Part shown: piece after piece, positions 18,439-38,405 of the stretch | How the letters are laid out: each line of letters begins with the position of its first letter | Numbering within the stretch: position 1 is the first letter of the stretch | From: Candidatus Woesearchaeota archaeon | GTDB lineage: Archaea > Nanobdellota > Nanobdellia > Pacearchaeales > GW2011-AR1 | Direction: 5' to 3' | Assembly (NCBI GenBank): GCA_964513665.1 | Contig: CAZEOE010000002.1 | Coordinates: 1-38,405, forward strand | Length of the DNA: 38,405 nt | Notes under the pieces: generated by a model | The model's database searches: none | Told to the model about the DNA's origin: nothing | Seen by the model: the letters and a program-made list of their open reading frames with translations, nothing else | Position numbers and translations under genes: made by a program

Positions 18439-18442
18439 GTAA

Positions 18443-23728: not shown

Positions 23729-23742
23729 AGCCTGCGGGAGCG

Positions 23743-25828: not shown

Positions 25829-26081
25829 TTGTCAAAAACTCCGCTACCTGATCTATATTCTGAAATCGCACAGCCTGACCGTTTACTTTTATGGTAACGG
25901 TATCGTCCCACTCCATTTGTCCGTTGAATATTTTTTCTTCTAACGCCTCCCAGTGGTCTATATATAATTGCATGGTTTCCAGTCCGAGCGCGATTTCCCT
26001 CTGACTGGCTAATCCCTTTTCGGCACGGTCAAATATTCTTTGTGCGGCGGCGTAAACTGCCTTATCAATAAAGAATGTCAT
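25815..26081 (-). CDS. hypothetical protein
   Basis: 88-aa ORF that overlaps the dnaB start and is ATGA-coupled upstream. Confidence 0.5.
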   Translation of the reverse strand: MTFFIDKAVYAAAQRIFDRAEKGLASQREIALGLETMQLYIDHWEALEEKIFNGQMEWDDTVTIKVNGQAVRFQNIDQVAEFLTNGLK

Positions 26082-26581: not shown

Positions 26582-26642
26582 GTTTTTCTCCTTGTTAGGG
26601 ACTTAAGATTTTGATCTTGCTTTAAAAAAAGGCGCAATAATC

Positions 26643-26693
26643 CTAGTGCGGCACTAGCGACTTATCTTTACTCAAAGAATAAAGCAATAAGTC
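26643..26693. promoter_or_regulatory. palindrome CTAGTGC-G-GCACTAG plus adjacent AT-rich hairpin
   Basis: 15-bp palindrome at 26643-26657. GACTTATCTTTA...TAAAG..ATAAGTC inverted repeat at 26659-26693. Both lie in the noncoding gap upstream of the replication genes. Confidence 0.35.
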
Positions 26694-26933
26694 GGACACA
26701 TTTATGGATTGCGAGTCCTCTCACCTTTCGCTTGTTCGGTTAGAACCATCGCGCCGCTGCTGTTCTCTGCTTTGTCCAGCGGTTGCCCTTTCGGGATTGG
26801 GAGGTGTCCAGTCGGTCTCTGACGGGTAACAGTTGTGATCCTCTTTCGCCTGTCGGCATGTTCGCCGCGCTTGTACTATTTAGGTTTTCTCCCGTCGGAT
26901 CGCTGGGGGTACTTCCCGTTGCCGTTGGGTGTG

Positions 26934-27323
26934 CTATTCCGCCATGTACTTTTTGAACACGGACGGAAGCTTCTTGTATTCTCTTTCCAGACGGGCTACT
27001 GCTTTTTTGTGGGTTTCGATGTTTTTGAAACTGTCAGAATAGAAAGTTCCCTTTATCGTCTTGTCTTTCTCGTACTTCTTTCCACATTCAACAGCGGTTT
27101 TCTCGTACCTCAACTGCTCATGAATGCCATACCAACGGATGATTTCGTCGCGACTGTAATCTTCCATCATTTCATACAACATGGACAGTTTCGCAATTTG
27201 TTCATTGAGGTTCTTCAACAGCCCTTTCACGTCCTCGATTGATGCGGATTCAGTCATTGAACAACAAGAGCATCCTTCGTGATACCCCTCAATGTCGCCT
27301 TCTGTCAGGTATATTCTTATCAT
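26934..27323 (-). CDS. hypothetical protein
   Basis: 129 aa. AAAGGAATTGAGAC-ATG. CSCC motif near the N-terminus. Confidence 0.5.
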   Translation of the reverse strand: MIRIYLTEGDIEGYHEGCSCCSMTESASIEDVKGLLKNLNEQIAKLSMLYEMMEDYSRDEIIRWYGIHEQLRYEKTAVECGKKYEKDKTIKGTFYSDSFKNIETHKKAVARLEREYKKLPSVFKKYMAE

Positions 27324-27352
27324 GTCTCAATTCCTTTCTTTGTCGTTGGGGT

Positions 27353-27370
27353 TACCGCTACGTATCGGTA
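27353..27370. promoter_or_regulatory. palindromic motif, copy 3 (TACCGCTACGTATCGGTA)
   Basis: One-mismatch variant. Its 17-mer ACCGCTACGTATCGGTA is identical to copy 5. It overlaps the stop of 27358-27567, upstream of 27323. Confidence 0.55.
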
Positions 27371-27567
27371 GCGACGCTCAGACTGTCATTGTTGAGTACC
27401 TGCTGAACCGCCCAAATGCCGCTCTCCAGCCCAAACCGTACCATTGCAAAGTTTCTTTTGGGTAACGCCTTTTTGAGTTTCCGCATCGCCCACAATTCAG
27501 AGGCATAAGCGGATCGGAGCGTTCGGGAGGTGATGTAGGGGTGTGTCATGATAATATCTTTCGACAT
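27358..27567 (-). CDS. hypothetical small protein
   Basis: 69-aa ORF with no clear SD. Confidence 0.4.
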   Translation of the reverse strand: MSKDIIMTHPYITSRTLRSAYASELWAMRKLKKALPKRNFAMVRFGLESGIWAVQQVLNNDSLSVATDT

Positions 27568-27600
27568 AACAAAAATGCCTAAGCAGGAAAACGTCCGCGC

Positions 27601-27804
27601 TCAGGCTGTCAACTCACGGATTCGATTTGGGTCTGTAATCTCGATGAATGTGTAATCGTTCTCAGGTGCTTCTAGTCTGCTTTCGCTTTCAAACCACACC
27701 CGCCCATCTGCTGTTTGATAAATGGTATTGCAAACGCAGGGGTCGGAGTACCTTTGTAATATTTTTGCTGTTTCAATCATGGGTTTGGCTTCTTGGTATT
27801 TCAT
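27601..27804 (-). CDS. hypothetical small protein
   Basis: 67 aa. AGAAAGGAATAAGCA-ATG. First ORF downstream of the 27996-28024 promoter, after a leader of about 190 nt. Confidence 0.5.
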   Translation of the reverse strand: MKYQEAKPMIETAKILQRYSDPCVCNTIYQTADGRVWFESESRLEAPENDYTFIEITDPNRIRELTA

Positions 27805-27995
27805 TGCTTATTCCTTTCTGTGGATAAAAAAAACTCCTCTACTTTCGGGCGATCTGCGATCTGCGGCAAGTACCAGTGACAAGATAGGTAAAAGATGCAG
27901 ACCACCCGAAAATGGGGGAGTCAGTCTTGTCTCATTTCCACCTGCCACAGTGGCGCGCGTTTTCTTGGTGCGCTTGCCATTCAATTGATAACTCC

Positions 27996-28024
27996 ATATT
28001 ACAACACAATCCCGCGGCTGTCAA
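27996..28024 (-). promoter_or_regulatory. consensus sigma70-type promoter
   Basis: Minus strand reads CTATTGACA, a 17-nt spacer, then TAATAT. The flanks (CTATTGACA ... GTTGTAATAT) are shared with the promoter at 29878-29906. Confidence 0.65.
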
Positions 28025-28201
28025 TAGCGAGTTTCAGCATCCTCTTTTGAAAACTCCCCGCCGCTCCGCAAGATCGCGCAGGATTTAGTCTGGCATCTTT
28101 AGCCAGCATACGGCGGGGAGTGTGAACGGGCGGGAGCGAGTTGCAATTTCGAGTTGCTCTTTGAATGTCTACTCAGCGGGGATACCGCCGCCCGTAATCA
28201 C

Positions 28202-28804
28202 CTATATACCCATGTATTTATACAATATCTTTTTAGCCGCAGCCCAAGCCGCATCCCTAGCCGCAGCCCGAGCCGCAACCCAAGCCGCAGCCCAAGCTGC
28301 ATCCCCAGCCGCAGCCCCAGCCGCAGCCCAAGCCGCATCCCTAGCCGCAGCCCAAGCCGCATCCCTAGCCGCAGCCAACTCTTCTTTTGTCGCTTTCCCA
28401 TGTGCGAATCGTCGTGCGGTATCTATCGCGTTTTGAGGTCGTTTGTCGTCTGGATAATGTTTGTTCCAGATTGGCATAACAGTTTCGGCAATATCACACG
28501 CGGCGAGGCGTGCATTTTTATCATTCCATTTATTGATTTTCTTGACGAATCGCATCTGTTGAGAAACGTCTTTTTCGTCACCCTCAAAAATATCACCCCT
28601 TAGTTCCACCTCGAACATTTGAGCGTTCATCCATTCAATAACGTGTTCCTTTTTGCAGGCGTGATACCCTGATACACAGAGTTCAATGGCGTCAACTTTC
28701 GGCAACCATTTTCCAGGCTTGCCATTTTTGGGTAGATATTCTGTAAAATCAAATCCAGAATACTCACCCTTGTTGTCCTCATCCAAAAACTTATAGCGTT
28801 TCAT
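28202..28804 (-). CDS. Ala/Trp tetrapeptide-repeat protein
   Basis: 200 aa. Globular N-terminal ~140 aa followed by AAARDAAWAAARDAAWAAAGAAAGDAAWAAAWVAARAAARDAAWAAA, which is encoded by the 12-nt tandem repeat. Confidence 0.65.
   Translation of the reverse strand: MKRYKFLDEDNKGEYSGFDFTEYLPKNGKPGKWLPKVDAIELCVSGYHACKKEHVIEWMNAQMFEVELRGDIFEGDEKDVSQQMRFVKKINKWNDKNARLAACDIAETVMPIWNKHYPDDKRPQNAIDTARRFAHGKATKEELAAARDAAWAAARDAAWAAAGAAAGDAAWAAAWVAARAAARDAAWAAAKKILYKYMGI
28236..28376. repeat. 12-nt tandem repeat, about 11.75 units (GCCGCAGCCCAA / GCCGCATCCCTA types)
   Basis: Read directly from the sequence: contiguous 12-nt units with 1-3 substitutions each, in frame within CDS 28202-28804. Confidence 0.85.
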
Positions 28805-28831
28805 TCATTACTTCTTTCTGCCTCTCGGCGG

Positions 28832-29083
28832 TTATCCTTCCGGCACAACCCACGCAATATAGGTCATGCCGCGTTGTTGGAAAATCCAGCACTCGCTAAT
28901 TCCCTGCGCTTCCAGTGTGCGGATGAACTTCTGCCCGCTGGTAAGGCGGACAAAATTATAATCAGAACCCGTAACTGGCGGGTCGCTGTGGTGGATAATA
29001 ATGTCTACCGGGGTTCGGGGTTCGCTTCTGCGCTCGTGCATGTCGTCTCTCAGTCTGCCCGTCCGCCGTTGTGTTTCTTCCAC
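28832..29083 (-). CDS. hypothetical small protein
   Basis: 83-aa ORF with a GTG start. An alternative ATG at 29041 has GAGAG upstream. Confidence 0.4.
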   Translation of the reverse strand: MEETQRRTGRLRDDMHERRSEPRTPVDIIIHHSDPPVTGSDYNFVRLTSGQKFIRTLEAQGISECWIFQQRGMTYIAWVVPEG

Positions 29084-29135
29084 GAAACCGAAAGCATACT
29101 CCTTTCGTTTACAGCGGACGGGCTTGGGATGTGCA

Positions 29136-29151
29136 ACCGATACGTATCGGT
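29136..29151. promoter_or_regulatory. palindromic motif, copy 4 (ACCGATACGTATCGGT)
   Basis: Perfect 16-bp palindrome between the tRNA and the next minus-strand ORF. Confidence 0.6.
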
Positions 29152-29171
29152 GGTTGCCTGTTCAAAAACAG

Positions 29172-29244
29172 AGCCGAGAGCGGGAATTGAACCCGCAACC
29201 TCCTGAGTACGAAACAGGTGCACTGCCAATTGTGCTACCTCGGC
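29172..29244 (-). tRNA. tRNA-Thr (anticodon CGU), no encoded CCA
   Basis: Minus strand reads GCCGAGG-TA-GCAC-AATTGGCA-GTGC-A-CCTGT-TTCGTAC-TCAGG-AGGTT-GCGGG-TTCAATT-CCCGC-TCTCGGC-T. All four arms fold, with one G-U in the acceptor stem and a U31-U39 mismatch. Confidence 0.85.
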
Positions 29245-29870
29245 AAACTCGCCCGCCCCTAAAAAGGCGCTACCTTTCTGTAGGTAACGGGCTACTAAAA
29301 CAGACCGCTTCACTAGCAAGGTATGCGCTTCTGCTTTTTCTAATTCACACCCCGCCGCTTATCGCCCTCTCTAAGTCAGCACCGTAAAAACGGGTTTCCG
29401 CGCATCACGGCGGGGGGTCTTGCTACGGGCTACGCTTGAATCCACCACGGAGTTTTACCGTCTCTAGCAAAGCCGCGCCCGTATCCACTGAAGAGTGGAG
29501 TTGACAAGAGGTAGTCAGGTCGCTCGTCTGTGCGCTGGTATTGCGTCCACTGACTCCCGCGCCGTTGGGTGTGTCTAGAACACCACCTACTTTACGTCTT
29601 AGTGACGGGACGCCCTCGCTGTACCTCTTGTCAATTCCACCATCCAAAGGATAATGTTTTTTTGTTGTCAATGTGCTTCCTCCTCCGCCCCGCCGCTCGG
29701 TTCATTTCACCACCTATTCTGTGACCGATATTTGAAGGACACGGCGGTTTGGACTCAGGAGGAGATCGGTACGGGCGGCGCATCGTTCCTACACTCTGGC
29801 GTCCCAGTTCGCAACCGAAGATGCTAGTGGTTTTGCGCCGTACGTCTATCGGCATTCACCGCGCCCGTAT
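29245..29870 (-). ncRNA. candidate large structured noncoding RNA / long structured tRNA leader
   Basis: About 620 nt with no credible ORF, between a consensus promoter and the tRNA. A 13-bp helix TTGACAAGAGGTA/TACCTCTTGTCAA (29634-29622 with 29512-29500) encloses about 109 nt that contain several local hairpins. A GGCAT/ATGCC hairpin lies at 29851-29873. Confidence 0.35.
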
Positions 29871-29877
29871 GCCAAAG

Positions 29878-29906
29878 ATATTACAACGCCAGCGGGCGGA
29901 TGTCAA
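29878..29906 (-). promoter_or_regulatory. consensus sigma70-type promoter (leftward)
   Basis: Minus strand reads TTGACA (29906-29901), a 17-nt spacer, then TAATAT (29883-29878). Confidence 0.65.
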
Positions 29907-29916
29907 TAGAAAACGG

Positions 29917-29932
29917 TAGTACTTAAGTACTA
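29917..29932. promoter_or_regulatory. 16-bp perfect palindrome TAGTACTTAAGTACTA (candidate operator)
   Basis: Lies between the two divergent -35 boxes and abuts the rightward -35. Confidence 0.55.
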
Positions 29933-29960
29933 TTGATAAAAATTGCTTTATGGATATACT
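29933..29960 (+). promoter_or_regulatory. sigma70-type promoter (rightward)
   Basis: TTGATA (29933-29938), a 16-nt spacer, then TATACT (29955-29960), upstream of the plus-strand arm. Confidence 0.45.
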
Positions 29961-30028
29961 TGAATAGTATCGCTTTGGTCACGCCCGAAAGGAATGTTTC
30001 CGGAGCGGTACTTTATAAAGGATGTCTT

Positions 30029-30460
30029 ATGCAATTACAAATATGGATGGTCACTTTTTCGACTGATTACATTACCGAGATAACTGGAATAAACCCCAAA
30101 ACAGTCAACGACTGGAAAAGGTTTATGAGTGGAGAGAAAGAAGATTTAACCAAAAGAGAGAATACCAAACCAGAGGCAATATTACAAGAAAGGTTTGTAA
30201 AGTCTCTAACAAGTGATTATGAAGAATATGTAAGGACTCCAACTGGCATAATAGACGTGCTAACGGAAAAAGAAATTTTTGAAATAAAGGTTTCCGTGTC
30301 GAACTCTACAATATACAAACCATTTGGGCAACTCATTATTTATTCAAAAAATTACCCAAGAAGAAAAAAGGTGATAGTCGCTAAAAAAGTGAGTCTGTCA
30401 AAAGAAATAATGGCAATACTAAGGGAAAACCAAATTGATGTGATCCATTTTGATAATTAG
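30029..30460 (+). CDS. HTH + PD-(D/E)xK nuclease-like protein (AT-rich moron)
   Basis: AAGGA SD then ATG 30029; the tool start at 29933 lies in the promoter. N-terminal HTH-like STDYITEITGINPKTVNDWKRF. GIIDVL...EIFEIK matches the D...ExK motif. GC content is clearly lower than the flanking sequence. Confidence 0.6.
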   Translation: MQLQIWMVTFSTDYITEITGINPKTVNDWKRFMSGEKEDLTKRENTKPEAILQERFVKSLTSDYEEYVRTPTGIIDVLTEKEIFEIKVSVSNSTIYKPFGQLIIYSKNYPRRKKVIVAKKVSLSKEIMAILRENQIDVIHFDN

Positions 30461-30492
30461 AACAAAATAGAACAAAGGGCAACTATCTTGCA

Positions 30493-30690
30493 ATGTTTCT
30501 ACTGGACTTTTTGATGTATCATATAGGCATGACCGAAAAAGACTTTGACCCGAACACAATGACACGCGCAACCCGTGAGGATATTTGCAGGATGTACTTG
30601 CGTCTATGGGGTTGGTATATCGTAGTCCCGTCAATGTACAAAGTCGAAAACGGCGAATATCTTGACCTGACACAATCAATAGGAGAATGA
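30493..30690 (+). CDS. hypothetical small protein
   Basis: 65-aa ORF with a weak SD. The start is uncertain. Confidence 0.35.
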   Translation: MFLLDFLMYHIGMTEKDFDPNTMTRATREDICRMYLRLWGWYIVVPSMYKVENGEYLDLTQSIGE

Positions 30691-30692
30691 CC

Positions 30693-30962
30693 ATGACCAC
30701 ATTTACGGAGCATGACCTGAGACTCGGCAATCATCTATATTTTGAACGCGGCGAACTGCTGGACGATCTGACAACCGCCACGCTGAACGAACGCCCGTTT
30801 TACCGCCATGATAGTTTGGCGGAAATCAGAGAGCAAATCCGCCTGATCGAAACCATCACGCCTGAGGCGCAAGCAGAATACTTCGACCCCCGCACTCCCG
30901 AACAGCGCGACCTTGACGAGTGGCAACAGGACTGGCAGGATACATACGCCAGCGCAAGGTAA
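30693..30962 (+). CDS. hypothetical acidic protein
   Basis: AGGAGA lies 6 nt before ATG 30693. The first ATG at 30687 abuts the SD. Confidence 0.5.
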   Translation: MTTFTEHDLRLGNHLYFERGELLDDLTTATLNERPFYRHDSLAEIREQIRLIETITPEAQAEYFDPRTPEQRDLDEWQQDWQDTYASAR

Positions 30963-31006
30963 ACTTTACCTTTGGAGGACACCCCCGCGTAAAGGACTCG
31001 CAATCC

Positions 31007-31023
31007 ACCGCTACGTATCGGTA
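31007..31023. promoter_or_regulatory. palindromic motif, copy 5 (ACCGCTACGTATCGGTA)
   Basis: Located 40 nt upstream of the erf start. Identical 17-mer to copy 3. Confidence 0.55.
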
Positions 31024-31063
31024 AACCAATTTGATACCGCGCTGAGGCGCGGGAAAGGAAAAA

Positions 31064-31654
31064 ATGAACAAGTCAGAAAACATCACCGAACTCGCACAGG
31101 CACTTGCCAAAACGCAGGCAGAAATGCCACACGTCCCAATGAATGCCGTCAATCCGTTTTTGAAAAACAAATTCGCGGACCTGGGCGCAGTCATCACCAC
31201 CATCAAACCGATCATTGCAAGGCACGGTCTGTCCTACTCGCAACTCCCCGTCTCCGACGGCAACCGAGTCGGCATCACTACCGTCGTCATGCACGCATCC
31301 GGTCAATGGATTGAGTCAACCGTCATGCTGGAACTGGCAGACGAGAAGGGCAAATCCGCCGCGCAAGTTGCAGGAAGCGTCATTACCTACCTGCGCCGCT
31401 ACTCGCTGTCGTCTGCGTTTGGTCTGTATGCCGACGAAGACACGGACGGAAATCCCGCCGCGAAACAGGCAGTAAAAGCGTCGGCAAAACAGACCGTGCG
31501 CGACCGCTATTCGGAACTGCTGAAAGAGGCGGTAGAACTCGGCGCGGTGAAAGAGTCCGATTGGGGACTCAACGACAAAATGACCGACGCGGAAATCACC
31601 GAACTCGGAAAGCAACTCCGCGCCATAGTTGAAAAAGCAAAGGTAGGTAAATAA
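31064..31654 (+). CDS. erf: ERF-family single-strand annealing protein
   Basis: NPFLKNKFADLGAV ... ITYLRRYSLSSAFGLYADEDTDG matches the ERF superfamily pattern. Confidence 0.85.
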   Translation: MNKSENITELAQALAKTQAEMPHVPMNAVNPFLKNKFADLGAVITTIKPIIARHGLSYSQLPVSDGNRVGITTVVMHASGQWIESTVMLELADEKGKSAAQVAGSVITYLRRYSLSSAFGLYADEDTDGNPAAKQAVKASAKQTVRDRYSELLKEAVELGAVKESDWGLNDKMTDAEITELGKQLRAIVEKAKVGK

Positions 31655-32049
31655 TGGGATGGTACTCGCACGATGAAACGCTGGTTGTCGGCAAGGTTGG
31701 CAAGGACGCGGAAATGAAATATCTGAATAACGGCAACGCCGTGACCAACTTCTCAATCGCTGTTGATCGCTCCTACAAGGACAGAGACGGCGAACTCCAC
31801 AAGCGGACTATCTGGTATCGCATCACCTGTTACGGCAAACTCGCTGAGGTTGTGAAGGATGTCAAGAAGGGCGATACCATTTTGGCAGGCGGTAATCTCG
31901 AAGCAGACTGGCAGACTGGTTCTCCGCGTATCTGGACCAAGCAGGACGGCTCCGCCGGTTCATCCTTTGAACTCAACGCGCAGACGATCAAGTTCCTTAG
32001 CAAGCGCGAGCAGACGGAAACCCCTGTCGAAGACGACGCGCCGTTCTAA
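31654..32049 (+). CDS. ssb: single-stranded DNA-binding protein
   Basis: OB-fold pattern (VVGKVGKDAEMKYLNNGNAVTNFSIAV...TIWYRITCYGKLAE) and an acidic C-terminal tip, EDDAPF. Confidence 0.9.
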   Translation: MGWYSHDETLVVGKVGKDAEMKYLNNGNAVTNFSIAVDRSYKDRDGELHKRTIWYRITCYGKLAEVVKDVKKGDTILAGGNLEADWQTGSPRIWTKQDGSAGSSFELNAQTIKFLSKREQTETPVEDDAPF

Positions 32050-32057
32050 CCACCAGC

Positions 32058-32082
32058 GCGGGGCGTGTGTGATGCGCCCCGC
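32058..32082 (+). terminator. GC hairpin after ssb (weak terminator candidate, no U-tract)
   Basis: GCGGGGCG (32058-65) pairs with CGCCCCGC (32075-82) across a 9-nt loop. Followed by CAACCAAAAA. Confidence 0.3.
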
Positions 32083-32141
32083 CAACCAAAAATGGCGTGC
32101 TGGTCGGTATGCCCTTGCAGGATAAACAATAGTTGGGCGGC
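32081..32141 (+). repeat. array-proximal junction site (short, degenerate attC/attI-like)
   Basis: GCCAAC-caaaaatg-GCGTGCTGG...GCAGGATAAACAATA-GTTGGGCGGC. The 3' half parallels GCAGGTAACGCAAACC-GTT. Its GTTGGGCGGC (32132-41) is the partner of R'' of cassette A. Confidence 0.45.
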
Positions 32142-32168
32142 TCTCGCTCAACAGCGTAAGGAGCAAAA

Positions 32169-32354
32169 ATGAAAGATTACGAATTGCCACAATGCGAAAA
32201 TTGTAAATGGTCATTAGGAATAGAGCAGGTTAGAAAGTCTCTGGTAATTGGCAATAAATTGTTTTGTGACAAGTGCCGCCCAACAAAGCGTGCACCCGAC
32301 GTGAAGCCACGTCGCGCCGTGAAAGCAAAAACCCGCAAGGCTTCACGCGGGTAA
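32169..32354 (+). CDS. cassette A: 61-aa zinc-ribbon mini-protein
   Basis: AAGGAG SD. CENC...CDKC. The stop TAA lies in the 3' arm GGGTAACGC of its attC-like site. Confidence 0.6.
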   Translation: MKDYELPQCENCKWSLGIEQVRKSLVIGNKLFCDKCRPTKRAPDVKPRRAVKAKTRKASRG

Positions 32355-32372
32355 CGCAAACCGTTCGGCGGC
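32275..32372 (+). repeat. attC-like site 1
   Basis: GCCGCCCAAC-aaa-GCGT-gc-ACCCG-ac-GTGAAGCC...GGCTTCAC-g-CGGGT-a-ACGC-aaacc-GTTCGGCGGC. Confidence 0.8.
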
Positions 32373-32392
32373 TCGTCCGCAAAGGAGAAATC

Positions 32393-32626
32393 ATGTTGAT
32401 AAAGGCTAAGGCGCGTTTAGGTTTTCGCAATATCGTTGTTGATGATTGCCCGTATTGCCATCGCACGCACTACCACAATCCGCCCATTGCGGAAGGTGTC
32501 CGCATGGCTGATTGCTTCAAGGGTGAATACCTGCTCGATTTTGAAGCCGCCGAACATTGTTTGCACACCGACCCGCCTTCGGCTCTTGAAGTCGCGGCGG
32601 AATCTCAAGAAACGGCGGGCGGGTGA
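32393..32626 (+). CDS. cassette B: 77-aa Cys/His mini-protein
   Basis: AAAGGAGA then 4 nt then ATG 32393. CPYCHRTHYH. The stop TGA lies in the 3' arm CGGGTGAAAC. Confidence 0.55.
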   Translation: MLIKAKARLGFRNIVVDDCPYCHRTHYHNPPIAEGVRMADCFKGEYLLDFEAAEHCLHTDPPSALEVAAESQETAGG

Positions 32627-32643
32627 AACTCGCCGTTAGGTGC
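32546..32643 (+). repeat. attC-like site 2
   Basis: GCCGCCGAAC-att-GTTT-gc-ACaCCG-ac-CCGCC...GGCGG-g-CGGGT-g-AAAC-tcgcc-GTTAGGTGC. GTTT/AAAC covaries with GCGT/ACGC. Confidence 0.75.
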
Positions 32644-32647
32644 TAAT

Positions 32648-32848
32648 ATGCTACAAATTTTGTCTTGTGGTTGTGAAGTGAAACTAAAGCGCGATAAGAT
32701 GCGCTGCTCAAAATGTGGTGAGCTATTTTGCCCGAAACATATCTATCAACGTGTTGATGAAAGTAATAGGGCTATCACTGTAAATGCTCCGTTGCTGTGT
32801 GCGGTATGCGCCAATCCAGAGAACGCACCTAACACAGCGTCCACCTGA
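32648..32848 (+). CDS. cassette C: 66-aa multi-CxxC mini-protein
   Basis: CGC, CSKC, CPKH and CAVC motifs. The stop lies inside the ACCTGAC arm. Confidence 0.5.
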   Translation: MLQILSCGCEVKLKRDKMRCSKCGELFCPKHIYQRVDESNRAITVNAPLLCAVCANPENAPNTAST

Positions 32849-32958
32849 CGTGCGCTCCGCTCGCCGCGTTCCGTGTACCTGTGGTATGGATGATGGCTTG
32901 CATGAATGGGATTGCGCCATAAGCCGCGCACGCAGGTAACGCAAACCGTTATGCCGCC
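32825..32958 (+). repeat. attC-like site 3
   Basis: GCACCTAAC-aca-GCGT-cc-ACCTG-ac-GTGCGC...GCGCAC-g-CAGGT-a-ACGC-aaacc-GTTATGCCGCC. Confidence 0.8.
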
Positions 32959-32988
32959 CACGGGCTGACAGTGGGAGAAAGGTCTACG

Positions 32989-33246
32989 ATGAACGTTTGG
33001 GATATTGAGTTACAGAAACACTATGCAGATATGGAAGAGGATAATTGGGACGCCGATCTCACCAGCTATTACCGTGTGGTTGCGCCTGATTATGAGAGCG
33101 CCTTAGCCACGGCAGAGTCGCTCGCTTTGTCCGAAACCTTCGAGGATGACGAATCCGACAAAGTTGTGCCAGTTGATCGGGTGCGCCTGGTTTCGATCAA
33201 GAAGGGCATTTCCGTTGACGCTATCGCAACCGTAAAGGCGGCATAA
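32989..33246 (+). CDS. cassette D: 85-aa acidic protein
   Basis: GGGAGA SD, ATG 32989. No Cys residues. The stop TAA lies within R'' GGCGGCATAAC. Confidence 0.55.
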   Translation: MNVWDIELQKHYADMEEDNWDADLTSYYRVVAPDYESALATAESLALSETFEDDESDKVVPVDRVRLVSIKKGISVDAIATVKAA

Positions 33247-33335
33247 CCCTGGCTTGCACGTTGACGGCGGCGGGCGTGGCAAAAACCGGACAGTCACAAA
33301 CGTCGCCGCAAGTGAAGCCAAACCCGTTGGGCGGC
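33237..33335 (+). repeat. attC-like site 4
   Basis: GGCGGCATAAC-cct-GGCTT-gc-ACgTTG-ac-GGCGGCG...CGTCGCC-g-CAAGT-g-AAGCC-aaaccc-GTTGGGCGGC. Confidence 0.75.
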
Positions 33336-33355
33336 TTTGCCCAAAAGGAAATAAC

Positions 33356-33679
33356 ATGAGCAACGGAAGATATTGTGATAATTGTGAAACTCACTTGAAT
33401 GATGAAGATTACGTGTCCTATGGTTCATGGTCTTACACTTGCCATGATTGCGGTTTTTCATATCGTCATGGTTCTGCTGGCGCAGGTGAGCAGGTTAAAA
33501 GATTCAACAGCCGCCCAACAAAGCGTGCAGCGGACAAAAGCGGGATTTTGCAAGAGTCGCCAAAGCCAGATAATATTATTTTGACGGTGAGACTTCGGAG
33601 CCAGTGTCCAGCCCGCTTTTGTCCGCTAAAGCCAGCCGTTCGGCGGCTTCGTGGCTGTCGAAAAAGTGAGAAGAAATGA
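33356..33679 (+). CDS. cassette E: 107-aa zinc-ribbon protein
   Basis: AAAAGGAA SD, ATG 33356. CDNC...CHDC. Reads through its own attC-like site and ends in an ATGA overlap with the next ORF. Confidence 0.5.
   Translation: MSNGRYCDNCETHLNDEDYVSYGSWSYTCHDCGFSYRHGSAGAGEQVKRFNSRPTKRAADKSGILQESPKPDNIILTVRLRSQCPARFCPLKPAVRRLRGCRKSEKK
33510..33647 (+). repeat. attC-like site 5
   Basis: GCCGCCCAAC-aaa-GCGT-gc-AGCGGACAAAAGCGGG...CCCGCTTTTGTCCGCT-a-AAGC-cagcc-GTTCGGCGGC, with a 16-bp perfect inner helix. Confidence 0.8.
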
Positions 33680-34038
33680 ACCTTTTACAATCAAGTAATT
33701 CGGTAAACGTAAAGGAAGATAATCCAGGTTTATTTGAGTTGTCGTTTTCTCAGCAAGCCTTTGCGGTTGGCGATATTGTTACTCGTTCTGGCAATGATGA
33801 GCAAGTGATAACTAGCATAGATTTTGATTGGGGAACGCTCGATGTATTGTGCATAAAGCCTGCGTACTGGATAGGCTTTGGCGAAAGCGAAGGCAATCTA
33901 ATAAGGCGGTATGAGTTTGTCAGAAGTGCCGCCGAACACAGCGTGTACCTGACCGCCTTCGGCGCGGGTATGCAGTTGCGCCTTGCTAAGTTTGTAAATT
34001 TTATTCGAGAGTTACTTGCCAAATACGGCGGCAGGTAA
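33676..34038 (+). CDS. cassette F: 120-aa hypothetical protein
   Basis: ATGA-coupled start. The stop TAA lies in the 3' arm CAGGTAACGC. Confidence 0.55.
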   Translation: MNLLQSSNSVNVKEDNPGLFELSFSQQAFAVGDIVTRSGNDEQVITSIDFDWGTLDVLCIKPAYWIGFGESEGNLIRRYEFVRSAAEHSVYLTAFGAGMQLRLAKFVNFIRELLAKYGGR

Positions 34039-34056
34039 CGCAAACCGTTAGCCCGC
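33928..34056 (+). repeat. attC-like site 6
   Basis: GCCGCCGAAC-aca-GCGT-gt-ACCTG-ac-CGCC...GGCG-g-CAGGT-a-ACGC-aaacc-GTTAGCCCGC. Confidence 0.8.
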
Positions 34057-34086
34057 ACTTGGCGCAATGTGCAGAAAGGCAAAATA

Positions 34087-34359
34087 ATGTCATTCAAATC
34101 AGATTTTGGTCGCGATCCAATTCCAGGCGAAGATTATTCATTAGATGATGCAATGTCTCAGGATGAATACGAATACCTTACAGGAACGGGCGCGTATTTG
34201 CCACGCAATCACGGTAAAAGTCAGCATTACGAGATTGTAAAAAAAGTCTTTGCTAAATTATTTAGCGGGCTAACAAAGCGTGCACCTGACGTGTGCAACG
34301 CGTCGGATTGCAAAGAGGCTGCCGTCAATGCGGGTTTATGTGAGAAGCATTCGTTCTAA
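34087..34359 (+). CDS. cassette G: 90-aa protein with C-terminal Cys/His knuckle
   Basis: AGAAAGG SD, ATG 34087. CNASDC...CEKH is encoded inside the variable part of site 7. Confidence 0.55.
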   Translation: MSFKSDFGRDPIPGEDYSLDDAMSQDEYEYLTGTGAYLPRNHGKSQHYEIVKKVFAKLFSGLTKRAPDVCNASDCKEAAVNAGLCEKHSF

Positions 34360-34395
34360 TCCTGCACACGCAGGTAACGCAAGCCGTTAGAAGGC
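34265..34395 (+). repeat. attC-like site 7
   Basis: GCGGGCTAAC-aaa-GCGT-gc-ACCTG-ac-GTGTGC...GCACAC-g-CAGGT-a-ACGC-aagcc-GTTAGAAGGC. Confidence 0.8.
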
Positions 34396-34399
34396 TAAT

Positions 34400-34603
34400 A
34401 TGCAAACGTCAATAATACTAACATGCTCGTCTTGCCACGAAAAACTAAATTTCTACATGAAGGTAATTGATAGCAATGTAGTTTTGCGCGTGTATAAGTG
34501 CGAAAATTGTAAGAAAACTGGTATTTGTTCTGTTTGCGGCGAAGGTGTTGTGTACAAAAAAGGTGTGTGCCAAAGTTGTTACGAATATGAGGCGCAGAAA
34601 TGA
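34400..34603 (+). CDS. cassette H/I, ORF 1: 67-aa double zinc-ribbon protein
   Basis: CSSC...CENC...CSVC...CQSC. Confidence 0.55.
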   Translation: MQTSIILTCSSCHEKLNFYMKVIDSNVVLRVYKCENCKKTGICSVCGEGVVYKKGVCQSCYEYEAQK

Positions 34604-34863
34604 AACATTATTTTATGACCTTGCCCAATGTTTTCTTTCCTGAAAACAGGTTTTGTGCCAAGTGTGGCGAATACTTCACACACCCGAATCACCTACATGG
34701 TAGAGATTGCCAATGCGAAACTTGCCAGCAAGAACGCCTTCTAACACAGCGTGCAGTTGACGTGGGGCAGGCTGGGCAATTTTTTGGACGGTCGGTTATG
34801 CCCCACGCAACTAACGCGAGCCGTTCGGCGGCAAAGGAGATAACATGGCTCGATTTTCAATAA
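34600..34863 (+). CDS. cassette H/I, ORF 2: 87-aa Cys/His protein
   Basis: ATGA overlap with ORF 1. CAKCG...H..H...CQCETC. Reads through site 8 and overlaps the next start. Confidence 0.5.
   Translation: MKHYFMTLPNVFFPENRFCAKCGEYFTHPNHLHGRDCQCETCQQERLLTQRAVDVGQAGQFFGRSVMPHATNASRSAAKEITWLDFQ
34736..34832 (+). repeat. attC-like site 8
   Basis: GCCTTCTAAC-aca-GCGT-gc-AGTTG-ac-GTGGGGC...GCCCCAC-g-CAACT-a-ACGC-gagcc-GTTCGGCGGC. Confidence 0.8.
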
Positions 34864-35159
34864 GTGGATACGATAACGATAGCAAGTGTAAAATATGCGG
34901 TTCTCACGCCAGCGAAATACACCGCGAAGGTTGTGAGCTTGGCGCGGTGTATGCCGAAAGAAAAGAGATGCGCTTAGTGATTGAGCAGTTTCTAAAATTG
35001 CTCGGTGTCGAAACTATCACCTCGGCGTTTTCAAAGATTGCCGCCGAACAAAACGCGCACCTGACGGGGCTACACTGTCCCGCCTGCATGTGCCGTAATG
35101 AAGAAATTGTAACTTGCGCCCGCTGTGGTACTTTGAAAGCCGCCCCGCAGGTAGCGTAA
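34845..35159 (+). CDS. cassette J: 104-aa zinc-ribbon protein
   Basis: AAAGGAGA SD. CKICG near the N-terminus. CPAC...CARC is encoded in the variable part of site 9. The stop TAA lies in the 3' arm GTAGCGTAAGCC. Confidence 0.55.
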   Translation: MARFSISGYDNDSKCKICGSHASEIHREGCELGAVYAERKEMRLVIEQFLKLLGVETITSAFSKIAAEQNAHLTGLHCPACMCRNEEIVTCARCGTLKAAPQVA

Positions 35160-35172
35160 GCCGTTCGGCGGC
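35040..35172 (+). repeat. attC-like site 9
   Basis: GCCGCCGAAC-aaa-ACGC-gc-ACCTG-ac-GGGGC...GCCCC-g-CAGGT-a-GCGT-aagcc-GTTCGGCGGC. ACGC/GCGT is the swapped version of GCGT/ACGC. Confidence 0.8.
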
Positions 35173-35183
35173 AAAGGAGAAAA

Positions 35184-35558
35184 ATGAACATTCGGCAATT
35201 TAGCGAAAAAATAATCAATGGTCCTGGCGGCTTGCACGCTTACGAGTATCACGAAATGGCTGAGCCAGTTGGTGATCGTGATGTGGCGGTGGCTGTCTGG
35301 GTAATCAAGTGTCTGTCTAATCCGAAGTGTGAAGGCTCGGAAGTGGCTATCCAAGCAATCTTGGAAAGGCGTAATAAACTTGCCGCCGAACAATACATGC
35401 ACCCGACTGGCGGTACGTGCCCCGTGTGCGAGAATGATCGCCTAAATGGGTATCCGTGTCCTAATCTAGACGTTGCTCCTCAGTGGCGTTGCAAGTGTGG
35501 CTGGGCAAATTTTGAAAATGTAAGACTGTGTTCTGCGTGTGGTACGCAACGCAGGTAA
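35184..35558 (+). CDS. cassette K: 124-aa protein with CPVC and a RanBP2-like zinc finger
   Basis: AAAGGAGA SD. WRCKCGWANFENVRLCSAC fits W-x-C-x-C-x3-N-x6-C-x2-C. The stop TAA lies in CAGGTAACGC. Confidence 0.55.
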   Translation: MNIRQFSEKIINGPGGLHAYEYHEMAEPVGDRDVAVAVWVIKCLSNPKCEGSEVAIQAILERRNKLAAEQYMHPTGGTCPVCENDRLNGYPCPNLDVAPQWRCKCGWANFENVRLCSACGTQRR

Positions 35559-35576
35559 CGCAAACCGTTACGACCC
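35382..35576 (+). repeat. attC-like site 10 (terminal, long, partly degenerate 5' arm)
   Basis: GCCGCCGAAC-aat-ACAT-gc-ACCCG-ac...g-CAGGT-a-ACGC-aaacc-GTTACGACCC. R'' and the 3' arm are intact, but the inner 5' arm no longer pairs perfectly. Confidence 0.6.
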
Positions 35577-35587
35577 CACCGGAACAG

Positions 35588-36265
35588 TCATGCAGGCTTG
35601 ACCACCGTGGTTTCAAAGAACAACTGACCATCCTTGTACACGCTCCCGTCGCGGAACGTGTAATAATCTTCCGGCAAAAATACCAATTTACTTTTCTCAA
35701 TCCAGCATCCGTCCACACCGTTCAACGGCTCGTTGCGGATGCGCGGAATGTACACATCCACCGGCTGTCCCTTGCGGTGGACATTGATAACCCGCCCGTC
35801 GGCATTCACCGCGCACGCTTTCCAAAATCTGTGCGGCTTCAGGAACCAATTGTCATAACGCGGGTCTAATGTATCCGCGTCAAAATTGTTCGGGTAGTCC
35901 ACTCGCCGAACATGGGTGGGAGTTTCCATATCCCACTCGATAAAATTCCCCCCGCAATCTATGCTTTCCGCCCGTCCTGTGGAGTAGGGGATTTCGTTGT
36001 CATAGTGAATGTTTATCCACATGGCATCAATAGAACGCGCATACTCATACCCAAGCGGATTGTTAATCCGCTCGATATACCGCCACCATCGCGCTCTGAT
36101 GGGTATCGTCCTGCCTTTTATCGTGCCCTGTCCCCGGTCTTGCATCGTGCAGGTATCCGGGTAGAACTCCAACGGAAAACCGCTGCGTATCGGTTGGTGT
36201 TTGATGTACGCCAGTTTCAACTTCTGCGGCTCCGGCGGCGGATGATAGGTGATCTTCAGTTTCAT
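35588..36265 (-). CDS. hypothetical tail-associated protein
   Basis: 225-aa ORF, ATGA-coupled to 36262-36597. Last gene of the tail-fibre operon and convergent with the cassette array. Confidence 0.5.
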   Translation of the reverse strand: MKLKITYHPPPEPQKLKLAYIKHQPIRSGFPLEFYPDTCTMQDRGQGTIKGRTIPIRARWWRYIERINNPLGYEYARSIDAMWINIHYDNEIPYSTGRAESIDCGGNFIEWDMETPTHVRRVDYPNNFDADTLDPRYDNWFLKPHRFWKACAVNADGRVINVHRKGQPVDVYIPRIRNEPLNGVDGCWIEKSKLVFLPEDYYTFRDGSVYKDGQLFFETTVVKPA

Positions 36266-36597
36266 TTCGGATGCAGCGTCACGGTCTGCGGATGGTGGTA
36301 TTCGGTCTCGATGGTTATGGTCAACGGCAAAACGTCGGGCGGCGGCAATGGCGGGTCGGGGTCAATCTCTTGTACTTTGACAAAGACTTTCACACCACCA
36401 ACCGTATTCGGATAGGATGCCGCAGTCCAATTGCCAGAGGGCGTTTTTACCCACATCCCCAAACCATTATTATCTGCCGTGCGATACTCAGTAGCAATCC
36501 ACGTCATGCCCGGCGTCAACACAACGCCAGTTTTCGCGCCGTTGATATGCGGCGTTTTTCGTTCGTCTGTATTCAATATCACTGTACACTGAAACAT
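36262..36597 (-). CDS. hypothetical protein
   Basis: ATG 36597 with GAGG 7 nt upstream. The tool start at 36636 overlaps the upstream gene. Confidence 0.5.
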   Translation of the reverse strand: MFQCTVILNTDERKTPHINGAKTGVVLTPGMTWIATEYRTADNNGLGMWVKTPSGNWTAASYPNTVGGVKVFVKVQEIDPDPPLPPPDVLPLTITIETEYHHPQTVTLHPK

Positions 36598-36604
36598 AAT
36601 CGCC

Positions 36605-37639
36605 TCACTTGTTGCACAACCACAAATCAAAATCAACGCCGGAATAAATCAACTCGCACCCGTCAAGCGTTGGCGTCACACTCGGCGGGATGCTGGTCTG
36701 CGTCCGCGTTGCAGTAGGTGTCCGCGTCACAGTCGGCACAATGCCAGTAGATGTCGGCGTCCTGCTCGGTGGTGGCGGCGCAGGTGTCACCGTTGGCACT
36801 CCATCCGGTGGGGGGGTACCTGCCACGTTGCCAGAGACTAAAACAGATGACGGTAACGAAATCCACGGTTGCGTGGTGTTGCTGAAATAATTGTTCACCA
36901 CCCGCACATTACTACCAGCGGGGATTGTCATCCCGTTTTCACCATAGAATCGGATGCCCCTGTAACAGTTATAGATATAGTTGCCTTCCACCAACACGTC
37001 GTGAAACTGATTACCCCATCCGCTGTAATTCTCCGTGCCTAAAAGGATACACTGCGCGGGGTTTCCGTTTCGGTAGAAACTGGTCTTTCCCGTATTCGTC
37101 ACGCGGTTGTTGCGTGCGGTCGTGTTGGGCGAATTATCCAGGTACAAATTTACGCTGTAATTGTCATGTACTAAGTTTCCTTCAATCAACACATTCCTAC
37201 CACGAGTCGCCGCGATCCCCTCCCCGTGATTTTCATACACCCAATTCCCGCGAATGGTGATGTTCTCACCGCCGAGTTGGACTTTCACACCGCTCCCCCA
37301 GCCCCCCGAGCGGTCCACATTCTCCCGCACGGTATCGAAGACGACACTATCTTGAAAAACAATATCCTTGCCGGTGATCAATACCCCGTGCGAATTGCAC
37401 CCGCTTACCACAAAGTCTCGCGCCACAATATGCCTGCCTGTCAATCTCAAGCACTGCACCCGCGCACCATTGCCCCACACCACCACCGGATCCGCCTCCG
37501 TGCCGCTCATGGAATAGGTCAGCGTCCCGTAGGTTCTCGACCCATCCAGCACAATATCGTTCGCGTTCGGCTGCGCCAGCAAAATGCCAGCCGCGATCAC
37601 CGCCGCGCCGATAATCCCTGCAATAGTTTTTCTGTTCAT
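36605..37639 (-). CDS. right-handed beta-helix (pectate-lyase-fold) protein with N-terminal anchor and Pro/Thr linker; candidate depolymerase or tail spike
   Basis: Start MNRKTIAGIIGAAVIAAGILLA (ATGA overlap at 37639). Repeated GN..-.N... rungs (IRGNWVYENHGEGI, IEGNLVHDNYSVNL, ARNNRVTN, VEGNYIYNCYRGI). PT-rich tract near the C-terminus. Confidence 0.65.
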   Translation of the reverse strand: MNRKTIAGIIGAAVIAAGILLAQPNANDIVLDGSRTYGTLTYSMSGTEADPVVVWGNGARVQCLRLTGRHIVARDFVVSGCNSHGVLITGKDIVFQDSVVFDTVRENVDRSGGWGSGVKVQLGGENITIRGNWVYENHGEGIAATRGRNVLIEGNLVHDNYSVNLYLDNSPNTTARNNRVTNTGKTSFYRNGNPAQCILLGTENYSGWGNQFHDVLVEGNYIYNCYRGIRFYGENGMTIPAGSNVRVVNNYFSNTTQPWISLPSSVLVSGNVAGTPPPDGVPTVTPAPPPPSRTPTSTGIVPTVTRTPTATRTQTSIPPSVTPTLDGCELIYSGVDFDLWLCNK

Positions 37640-38405
37640 GCCTCTACTCCATAAATGTATTCCCACACGATGACCAGACCCGGCGCACCGTTCCCGCCTG
37701 CGCGGTTGTTGGCGTCATTGCTGGAGCGCGCTCCTGTCCCGCCGCCGCCCCAATTTTTGCCCGTAGTCCCCGCCTCGTCTGCTCCGATAACCCCGGTCGA
37801 GCGGGTATTCCCAGCCCAAAATGACGCCCCGCCAACCGATGGAGACACTTGCGTAACAGCCCAGCACGCGCCGGGGATGGACTCGGCGCCGGGGATATGG
37901 AGATCACCGCCCGTCCCGCCCGTACCGCCAGCCCCACCACCCACCGCGCCGGAACGTGGCACGGTTGCGCTTGCCGCTTCGCCATTGCCCCCTTTCCCCC
38001 CTACAACGTTGAAATGACTGCCAAATGAGCAGTTACCACCATCACCACCATTATTGTTCCCAGCCGTCGCACCTGTACCCACCGCGCCGATGGTCACAGT
38101 CTCGCTCGACCCCAACGCGGATGCAAGTATCTTTTTCTTGGCATACTCCCCACCGCCGCCGGCATTGGCACATGCCGCCTGACTGGATGCGCCTGTCACA
38201 CCTCCGCCGCCGCCGCCAGGGGCAATAGCCTCAACAATAATATAAGCAAGGTTGCTCGGTTTGTCCCAACCGCCTGAGGATGTGTACACTCTCGGACTTG
38301 CCGCCGATAGTTTTACGGGCGAGTCCGCGCTTAACAAATAGGTTTCAATCGCGGTGATTTCATCCGCCCGCTCGTTTTGATGCAACGCCAAAACGTCATC
38401 AACAA
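37636..38405 (-). CDS. glycine-rich tail fibre protein, C-terminal part (5' end runs off the window and joins 1-184 if circular)
   Basis: The frame is open to 38405; the tool start at 38391 is a TTG. Poly-Gly blocks (GGGGGGVTG, GGDGGN, GGGAGGTGGTGG) are typical of phage fibre Gly-rich domains. Confidence 0.6.
   Translation of the reverse strand, partial: VDDVLALHQNERADEITAIETYLLSADSPVKLSAASPRVYTSSGGWDKPSNLAYIIVEAIAPGGGGGGVTGASSQAACANAGGGGEYAKKKILASALGSSETVTIGAVGTGATAGNNNGGDGGNCSFGSHFNVVGGKGGNGEAASATVPRSGAVGGGAGGTGGTGGDLHIPGAESIPGACWAVTQVSPSVGGASFWAGNTRSTGVIGADEAGTTGKNWGGGGTGARSSNDANNRAGGNGAPGLVIVWEYIYGVEA

Follow-up and report, generated by a model that had tools for sequence, protein, structure and literature searches.

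The classic example of a chromosomal integron is the VCR (Vibrio cholerae repeat) array of Vibrio cholerae. In integron arrays, recombination within the GTT core, between the G and the TT, makes each attC site chimeric: the bases that follow the GTT are part of the next cassette and are complementary to the R'' flank of that same cassette. An attC site is defined by an R box, an L box, extrahelical bases on the L'' arm, an asymmetric central spacer, and a variable terminal structure (Nivina et al. 2016, PMC5027507). Integrons are present in Chloroflexi (Cury et al. 2016, PMC4889954). A survey of 10,705 phage genomes reported 21 positives for integrons or CALINs (clusters of attC sites lacking integron integrases), a CALIN being counted from two sites upward and the illustrated example having three; bacterial IntI1 was found to recombine such phage attCs (Qi et al. 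2023, PMC9892861). The present analysis concerns a stretch of 38,405 nucleotides (positions 1 to 38,405 of contig CAZEOE010000002.1), referred to below as the window, which is a tailed-phage genome or most of one. Its repeated elements are very probably attC recombination sites of integron gene cassettes inside the phage, and positions 32105-35576 in all likelihood hold an integron-type, integrase-less array consisting of an attI-like site and ten promoterless mini-cassettes. This reading goes beyond resemblance because of a junction signature between neighbouring cassettes, homology to sites that adjoin integrases, and the start of the array at an attI homologue.

Compared with the sedentary chromosomal integrons of Anaerolineales/Chloroflexota (retrieved loci L162, L169, L144, L148, L131, L193, and L232), the window array has the same R/L layout, bulges, spacer, and variable loop. 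It also shares with these chromosomal arrays the junction signature at the GTT, the attC covariance-model family, and the attI motif, and it resembles chromosomal integrons in its long (about 120-135 nt), lineage-homogeneous sites. Unlike them, it lies in a phage, no intI was found in the window, and its cassettes measure only 231-437 bp; moreover, viral open reading frames (ORFs) read through the attC, and viral site length is variable rather than uniformly 121-122 nt. The phage CALINs of Qi et al. 2023 (PMC9892861) likewise consist of co-oriented cassettes in functional phage genomes, some of them virulent, and DNA-modification genes occur as cargo in both cases, Mom-like here and methyltransferases there. 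The differences lie in the presence here, within one phage, of an attI homologue and 10 to 11 sites, in the multi-copy arrays of one attC family in at least 86 viral contigs, and in the diverged phage-borne IntI clades that accompany some of these arrays. The literature searched contains no report of large phage arrays, of the attC family of the window, or of its phage-specific features. On the sequence features described below, the element is a true attC/cassette array of CALIN type, in a large, widespread, phage-adapted variant.

On the gene strand, each site begins with an R'' box of consensus GCC(T/C/G)AAC, which fits RYYYAAC, followed by the spacer A(A/C)A and an L'' arm, GCGT-GC-A-CCTG-A-C, that carries bulged bases. 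After a variable inner stem and loop come the L' arm G-CAGG-T-A-ACGC, the spacer AA(A/G)CC, and an R' box GTT(A/G/C)G.. that fits GTTRRRY. The spacer is therefore asymmetric, with 3 nt (AAA) in one arm and 5 nt (AAACC or AAGCC) in the other. AAC and GTT are present in 10/10 plus-strand sites of the window; the span between them is 84-181 nt, and the loop varies in length. In 150 viral homologues, the overall box consensus is GCCTAAC for R'' and GTTAGGC for R', the AAC and the G-T of the core are invariant, and the third base of the GTT is T in 147. Conservation in these homologues is highest at the unpaired bases, while the paired positions covary. The bulged A is found in 149 of the 150, the bulged G in 132, the bulged C in 134, and the lone A of the 3' arm in 145; the spacer A and CC are kept in 149-150. 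On the top strand, it is the 5' (L'') arm, opposite the bottom-strand AAC, that carries the extra bases. A first-pass annotation, made from the window alone, had described such asymmetric, attC-like bulges; this description holds across the viral sites, where the bulges are near-invariant, but not for site 5 of the window, which has no bulged A. The bulges are spaced by 6 nt here and by 7 nt in attCaadA7 (G16 and T23). When folded with DNA parameters, most sites adopt the expected hairpin as their minimum-energy structure, and the layout of the element has the features by which Nivina et al. 2016 (PMC5027507) define an attC.

The repeats stand well apart from chance. The 3' arm GGTAACGCAAACCGTT, with up to three mismatches allowed, is found at 9 places where 0.5 would be expected, and the 5' arm AACAAAGCGTGCACCTGAC at 7 where the expectation is 0. 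Eight sites were used to build a covariance model, R1, whose structure followed the helices of the first-pass annotation, while three divergent sites were held out. It recovers all three held-out sites (2, 4, and 10; E = 7.5e-6 to 2e-3) and gives no match in 389 kb of unrelated ERF-phage loci used as a negative control. A MAFFT alignment of the 11 sites misplaced the divergent sites 2, 4, 5, 6, and 10, and the covariance-model alignment was used instead. Relatives were retrieved by an exact 3'-arm pattern, yielding at least 120 viral and at least 120 genome stretches; single matches to this pattern are at chance level, whereas arrays are not. Among these stretches, R1 finds at least 362 sites in at least 86 viral loci, and at least 129 sites, with scores of up to 84 bits and up to ten sites per 8 kb, in at least 55 genome loci. 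The viral contigs come from IMG/VR and may contain prophage or host DNA. The genome loci are overwhelmingly metagenome-assembled genomes of Anaerolineales/Chloroflexota among the matches listed.

The first-pass annotation held that the element is conserved as a nucleic-acid structure and not as a peptide, its helices being kept by compensatory change, and both statements are upheld by strong covariation and by the use of three frames to translate the arm. Pairing in the L box and inner stem reaches 91.9% in the alignment of the 11 window sites, with 13/16 pairs changed on both sides. The full 26-pair structure contains 36 double-change cells, compared with 12.8 in shuffles, and 0/500 shuffles reach 36; when the structure is slid by 1-3 columns, only 31-39% of cells are paired. 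Among 149 distinct viral homologues, 15/16 pairs of the L box and inner stem are two-sided and 97.8% of cells are paired, with 595 double-change cells in the whole structure against 171 in shuffles. The 129 bacterial-genome sites are 91% paired overall and also covary strongly, and slid structures (1-3 columns) across the sets are 26-39% paired. The shuffled and slid controls fall far below the observed values and partly answer the objection that the compensations are an alignment artefact. The individual helices named at the outset are present in the sequence, both those of the second arm (ACCTG/CAGGT, ACCCG/CGGGT, AGTTG/CAACT, and AGCGGA/TCCGCT) and those of the first (GCGT/ACGC, GTTT/AAAC, GGCTT/AAGCC, and the swapped ACGC/GCGT). 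The inner helices, described as complementary in every copy, also occur as listed, except that the one in site 4 holds one G-T pair. The site count needs a small correction: nine full sites lie within the annotated range 32275-35172, the tenth is at 35382-35576 and the eleventh is on the minus strand at 17821-17953.

Translation of the hairpin raises the question of whether paralogous small proteins share a conserved peptide module at their C-termini. In favour of this explanation, an ORF remains open for at least 40 codons into the attC in 189/268 viral sites, 102 of them ending at the same TAA/TAG of the L' arm, and some loops encode CxxC motifs. However, three frames are used, both across the viral sites (108, 43, and 38) and in the window, as the first-pass annotation had noted. 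A check of sites 1-10 places sites 1, 5, 7, and 8 in frame 1 (TKRAPDV) and sites 2, 6, 9, and 10 in frame 2 (AAEH/AAEQ). The 5' arm of site 3 is read in frame 0 and stops after PNTAST, at the TGA of CCTGAC, and the ORF of site 4 stops at a TAA overlapping the AAC. In addition, no ORF enters 83/108 of the homologous bacterial sites, and it is the paired positions that covary while the unpaired ones stay fixed. A further possibility is a generic dispersed repeat with no role in recombination, resembling REP (repetitive extragenic palindromic) or MITE (miniature inverted-repeat transposable element) sequences, but the sites are strictly co-oriented and bound cassettes. Taken together, a peptide module or a dispersed repeat deserves next to no credence, and the peptide as primary constraint is refuted by the frame analysis.

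A structural constraint could also act on RNA. The repeats would then be signals in a polycistronic early transcript, such as a terminator or attenuator, an RNase III-type processing site, or an element of translational coupling, as in the T7 early region. Their position speaks for this possibility: they are co-oriented with the genes, lie at gene ends, are followed after 7-20 nt by a Shine-Dalgarno sequence (AAAGGAG), and are predicted to form stable hairpins with internal loops. RNA helices usually tolerate G-U pairs. In the L box and inner stem of the 149 viral sites, by contrast, 2290 cells are Watson-Crick, 15 are G-T on the top strand, 11 are C-A (equivalent to G-T on the bottom strand), and 42 are other mismatches. 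Because wobble pairs are as rare as other mismatches on both strands, the pattern favours a constraint on DNA rather than on RNA, a choice which the first-pass annotation had left between the two. There is also no T-run after the stems, terminator-like matches on the plus strand are no more frequent than in shuffled sequence and none falls at the elements, and no Rfam family is found in the array at E values up to 1. Finally, an RNA signal cannot explain why the bases after each GTT pair with the next site, nor the association with an integrase and attI described below. An RNA signal as the primary function is consequently considered exceedingly unlikely, although the hairpins may have a secondary effect in RNA.

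The pairing across cassette boundaries is central to the attC reading. When the 8 nt preceding the AAC of site n are compared with the reverse complement of the 8 nt following a GTT, they agree with the previous site (n-1) at 74/80 positions and with their own site at 46/80. Examples are GTTATGCCGCC with GGCGGCATAAC, GTTAGCCCGC of site 6 with GCGGGCTAAC in the R'' flank of site 7, and GTTAGAAGGC of site 7 with GCCTTCTAAC in the R'' flank of site 8; the R'' flank of site 4, GGCGGCAT, is an 8/8 match to the post-GTT flank of site 3. The signature extends to the boundary upstream of site 1, where the post-GTT bases of the attI-like site (GTTGGGCGGC at 32132) pair with the R'' flank of site 1. In the relatives, a 7-nt flank matches the previous site with a mean of 5.48 and its own site with a mean of 3.44 in viral arrays (n = 176 junctions), and with means of 6.38 and 4.05, respectively, in genome arrays (n = 60 junctions; random site 3.4). 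The signature is best read as the trace of a circular cassette intermediate, and it is predicted by neither an RNA hairpin nor a peptide repeat. The whole of cassette 6 is 88% identical to positions 5637-6053(-) of another viral contig, L063; the homology runs from the GTT of the preceding site to about 7 nt past its own GTT, and the flanks are unrelated. Cassette 8 recurs with about 92% identity at 747-1139(-) of L104. Homology bounded in this way by GTTs, together with the recurrence of cassette 8, identifies the cassette as the unit of exchange.

Another manner of shuffling has been proposed for small early genes of phages. T4-type phages reportedly carry PeSL (promoter-early stem-loop) cassettes, described by Arbiol and co-workers in 2010, in which an early promoter is joined to a stem-loop and exchange proceeds by homologous recombination; PeSLs are said to lie on either side of variable small early genes in the hyperplastic regions, where they would favour the shuffling of modules. 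The window elements resemble them as repeated stem-loops flanking small early genes. They differ in that the sites contain no consistent promoter, and the junction signature and integrase association point to site-specific recombination. A related explanation is that the repeats are attC-derived but now serve only as linker homology, with general or ERF/SSB-mediated recombination swapping modules between co-infecting phages in a PeSL-like manner. Genes for ERF and SSB lie directly upstream, an integrase was not found in the window, and the arms offer 15-20 nt of near-identical sequence, within which (in the conserved 3' arm) an exchange would keep an existing junction signature. Such exchange cannot, however, make the first bases of a cassette complementary to the R'' flank of that cassette, and it leaves both the selection on inner-stem pairing and the invariance of the bulges unexplained; related phages, moreover, retain intact integron integrases adjoining attI. 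As the sole explanation, linker homology is therefore judged very unlikely, but homologous exchange and site-specific recombination may coexist.

Arrays of the same family adjoin integron integrases, which match TIGR02249 with 307-449 bits (cut-off 265), in the viral contigs L058, L074/L096, L089, and L110 and in the Anaerolineales contigs L131, L193, and L232. Contig L110 also carries terminase, portal, and head protease genes, and complete integrons are therefore present in real phage contigs of this group. In the window itself, no intI was detected in Pfam and PHROG scans of 24 of the larger ORFs or in a six-frame motif scan, and tblastn with a related IntI query returned a best E-value of 6 and no tyrosine recombinase. 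With no intI in 38.4 kb, the array is a CALIN-type element in the terminology of IntegronFinder, provided that none lies outside the window. The attI-like site 0 (32105-32134, plus strand; crossover GTT at 32132-32134) reads GGATAAACAATA immediately followed by GTTGGGCGGC and marks the left end of the array. A boundary motif ..C.GT(A/T)TAAAC(A)ATA, directly followed by GTT, is common to 26 array starts, including that of the window (ATAAACAATA before the GTT). Its core, TATAAAC(A)ATA before GTT, is the integrase-proximal attI boundary of the Anaerolineales integrons L131, L193, and L232. Site 0 is accordingly regarded as an attI homologue, and by this homology it would be expected to function as attI. 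The intI stop codon of L058 and L110 is followed after 0-7 nt by the crossover GTT of attI.

Several observations weigh against the attC reading. No integrase was found in the 38.4 kb, and activity here needs an IntI acting in trans; the array may be a frozen relic. The window lacks a terminal repeat and may be less than the whole genome; neither its source contig nor its flanks turned up in exact-protein look-ups or in exact-DNA scans of viral and metagenome contigs. Because the relatives were retrieved by an exact pattern, some of the conservation of the 3' arm is built in for one or more sites of every locus. Fitting the alignments to the model likewise favours the structure; the shuffled and slid controls are a partial answer. 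The comparison of folding energies of the two strands, proposed in the first-pass annotation, proved uninformative: the bottom strand is not more stable than the top in the 11 sites, the mean DNA folding energy being -24.8 kcal/mol for both. Nor does the bottom strand show an excess of G-T pairs (11 versus 15 on the top strand in 149 viral sites). Greater folding stability and a larger number of G-T pairs in the bottom strand are typical, but not defining, features of attCs in mobile integrons (Nivina et al. 2016, PMC5027507). On the other side stand the attC architecture, the covariation, the junction signature, the cassette-delimited homology, the homology to IntI-linked sites and attI, and the phage context, all of which are shown by the sequences.

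Recombination activity is proposed by analogy with the established integron mechanism. When the DNA becomes single-stranded, each site would fold on the bottom strand into a hairpin, and IntI would bind its R box (AAC/GTT) and L box, the invariant bulges and asymmetric spacer marking the strand to be used. Cleavage at the AAC/GTT triplet would then excise a cassette as a circle or insert it at attI or another attC, with replication resolving the product. To judge from the context, IntI would have to be supplied in trans, either by the host, probably a member of the Anaerolineales, or by a co-infecting related phage with its own intI. The Anaerolineales are the candidate host because their chromosomal integrons share both the attC and the attI type. 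The position of the array suggests that the cassettes would be expressed by read-through from an early promoter region near 29900. Since the phage ORF usually reads through the hairpin to the TAA of L', the site would also encode a C-terminal tail.

In the array, ten cassettes of 231-437 bp, all in one orientation, come after the attI-like site and span 32133-35567 on the plus strand. Every cassette terminates in an imperfect hairpin. Each ORF lies upstream of its attC and has its own Shine-Dalgarno sequence, and nine of the ten cassettes contain a single ORF, the remaining one containing two. The overlap of the ORFs with the attC is a departure from usual cassettes. In a scan with a sigma-70-type model, promoter-like matches were sparse, not one per cassette and none recurrent at the sites, although the promoter type of the host may differ.

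Cassette 1 (32133-32363, 231 bp; ORF 32169-32354) ends in site 1 (32275-32372; AAC 32282, GTT 32363; R1 86.2 bits), which folds as a clean DNA hairpin and supplies the stop codon of the ORF, the TAA of L'. It is followed by cassette 2 (32364-32635; ORF 32393-32626) with the divergent site 2 (32546-32644; AAC 32553, GTT 32635; held-out match E = 7.5e-6), whose helices are GTTT/AAAC and CCGCC/GGCGG. Site 3 (32824-32957; AAC 32831, GTT 32948; 102 bits) closes cassette 3 (32636-32948; ORF 32648-32848). This cassette looks frameshifted over 32648-32939: the main ORF is halted at the TGA within the 5' arm, and another frame, 32784-32939, continues through the loop to the usual L' TAA and encodes a CxC...H...C peptide. 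The divergent site 4 (33238-33335; AAC 33245, GTT 33326; held-out match E = 0.0018) also folds as a hairpin and terminates cassette 4 (32949-33326; ORF 32989-33246). Cassette 5 (33327-33638; ORF from 33356) ends in site 5 (33510-33647; AAC 33517, GTT 33638; 86.3 bits), which has a perfect 15-bp stem, GCGGACAAAAGCGGG/CCCGCTTTTGTCCGC.

The second half of the array is organized in the same manner. Cassette 6 (33639-34047; ORF 33676-34038) carries site 6 (33928-34056; AAC 33935, GTT 34047; 95.5 bits), and cassette 7 (34048-34386; ORF 34087-34359) carries site 7 (34265-34395; AAC 34272, GTT 34386; 113.9 bits). The two ORFs of cassette 8 (34387-34823) occupy 34400-34603 and 34600-34863; its site 8 is at 34736-34832 (AAC 34743, GTT 34823; 85.1 bits). 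Both strands of site 9 (35040-35172; AAC 35047, GTT 35163; 105.2 bits) fold as a clean hairpin; its first arm is the swapped ACGC/GCGT, and the ORF of cassette 9 (34824-35163; ORF 34845-35159) stops at the TAG of L'. The last site, site 10 (35382-35576; AAC 35389, GTT 35567; held-out match E = 0.0011), has a 181-nt span, and the ORF of cassette 10 (35164-35567; ORF 35184-35558) runs through its long coding loop, which contains CxxC motifs, to the L' TAA.

Neither Pfam nor PHROGs offers a significant family match for the cassette proteins of the window; the zinc-finger matches obtained stay below threshold. The translated attC loops at 32849-32939, 34290-34359, 35065-35159, and 35407-35558 encode zinc-ribbon-like tails of CxxC/CxxH type, an example being CPACMCRNEEIVTCARCG in site 9. 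Across the viral contigs, CxxC-type motifs occur in 27/119 read-through tails, about a quarter.

Phage and bacterial versions of the system differ consistently, albeit in limited samples. The median cassette length is 514 bp in viral contigs and 836 bp in Anaerolineales genomes, the AAC-GTT span of the attC is 82-122 nt and 121-122 nt, respectively, and the read-through into the attC described above for most viral sites is found in only 25/108 genome sites. The phage-borne IntI proteins are 40-52% identical to the bacterial ones, which are 73-77% identical among themselves. Integrons of the Treponema denticola type have intI transcribed towards the cassettes. The same arrangement is seen in relatives of the window, intI and cassettes being co-directional in 4/4 viral contigs (L058, L074, L089, and L110), with the short distance between the intI stop codon and attI already noted for L058 and L110; in 3/3 Anaerolineales genomes, the two are divergent, as in classical integrons. 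These differences allow the tentative proposal, held with somewhat less than even confidence, that a phage lineage, whose hosts are probably filamentous Anaerolineales, has adopted the integron as its own platform for shuffling accessory genes rather than merely carrying captured bacterial fragments. Under the same provisional proposal, integrase-less phages could keep attI and the array and rely on IntI in trans. Their cassettes would be miniaturised, to about 230-500 bp. The attC would possibly double as coding sequence, sometimes for zinc-ribbon tails, with L' supplying the stop codon. If this is true, early-gene cargo of unknown function would be exchangeable between phages and perhaps with their hosts.

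Outside the array, one solitary cassette lies on the minus strand among the leftward early genes (17821-18452; left boundary GTT 18452-18450). Its ORF, 18438-17839, matches phrog_1384, a Mom-like DNA modification protein (2.4e-31), and Mom-like homologues are cassettes in the arrays of L101, L021, L113, and L076. The cassette ends in attC M1 (17953-17821, minus strand; 91.4 bits), in which R' has decayed to GTA; GTTAGCCTTC at the start of the cassette pairs with GAAGGCTAAC at M1. Its left boundary is provided by a degenerate attC-like site at 18447-18516(-), a weak match (R1 10.2 bits, E = 0.61) in which ...GATACGCAAACCGTT retains the 3' arm. A second, fossil cassette occupies 23414-23790(-), where a decayed 3' arm is followed after about 330 nt by a degenerate attC. 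The arm, AGTAACGCAAACCTTT at approximately 23763-23748(-), differs from the 3' arm at 2 positions and has TTT in place of GTT; the attC, 23500-23414(-), has CTA in place of GTT (13.3 bits, E = 0.085). The state of this cassette suggests old insertions that became fixed. The decayed sites at 18447-18516(-), 23414-23500(-), and 23748-23790(-), together with the GTA of M1, show that sites do decay in this genome.

Integrase-mediated insertion at a non-att genomic GTT, termed 'attG', is described in a preprint by Loot et al. (bioRxiv 10.1101/2022.09.11.507474). This route could place lone cassettes outside arrays, for example at 17821-18452(-) and 23414-23790(-). Unlike an attG insertion, the Mom-like cassette has a left boundary resembling a decayed attC 3' arm, and it may therefore be a remnant of a small array. 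Among the known types of element considered for the window repeats as a whole, the readings as a protein motif, an RNA terminator or RNase III site, a PeSL-like module, and a dispersed repeat were rejected.

The assignment of the window to a tailed phage agrees with its gene content. Late genes on the minus strand encode a tail tube protein, a fused prohead protease and major capsid protein, a portal protein, a terminase nuclease domain, and a DNA methylase, and the early genes include those for DnaB, a NinG/Rap-like nuclease, ERF, and SSB. ERF (31064-31654, plus strand) lies directly upstream of the array region, with SSB (31654-32049, plus strand) between it and the array. The array is on the ERF/SSB strand, at the distal end of the rightward early operon of the phage. 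A search of 25000-38405 by megablast against deposited phage genomes gave no match. Relatives of ERF in viral and metagenome contigs have identities of at most 65% and lie on short contigs, none of which contains the sites. A tRNA-Thr gene with anticodon CGT (29171-29244, minus strand) separates the leftward early genes from the divergent promoter region, and it is the sole match of the whole window to Rfam at gathering thresholds.

Some further features of the window were noted. Back-to-back promoter-like sites on both strands at 29628-29960, each matching 10/12 positions, mark a probable divergent early control region, which would drive the rightward operon that comprises the cassette array as well as ERF and SSB. 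A G+C-rich hairpin, GCGGGGCG-tgtgtgat-GCGCCCCGC, is located at 32058-32083, right after the SSB stop codon and ahead of the attI-like site; no T-run follows it. A tandem 12-nt unit similar to AGCCGCAGCCCA is present in about 11 or more copies at 28211-28400, inside the minus-strand ORF 28202-28804, whose product matches the Imm5-like and DUF7666 families; the repeat therefore encodes a short, repeated Gly/Cys-rich peptide. The N6/N4 DNA methylase of the window (14582-15922, minus strand) has no flanking attC. Its homologue at 1142-1908 of the viral locus L025 stops 20 nt before an attC and is therefore apparently a cassette there.

Integrons have been regarded as bacterial devices, and in phages they were found to be rare and small (Qi et al. 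2023, PMC9892861). The window adds a ten-cassette array with an attI homologue in a phage early region, and arrays built from this attC family are present in at least 86 viral contigs. Cassettes translated through their attC bear on the origin of the association between gene and attC and on the coding constraint that an attC tolerates. The sites also provide a set of substrates, with ten natural compensatory variants plus one without the bulge, for studying attC rules with non-proteobacterial integrases. If the arrays are active, they would permit site-specific swapping of small early genes one at a time, these genes being candidates for a part in host takeover or anti-defence, and they would constitute a recombination 'currency' common to phage and host. 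In that case, the attC type would also be a marker for predicting the hosts of uncultivated Chloroflexota phages.

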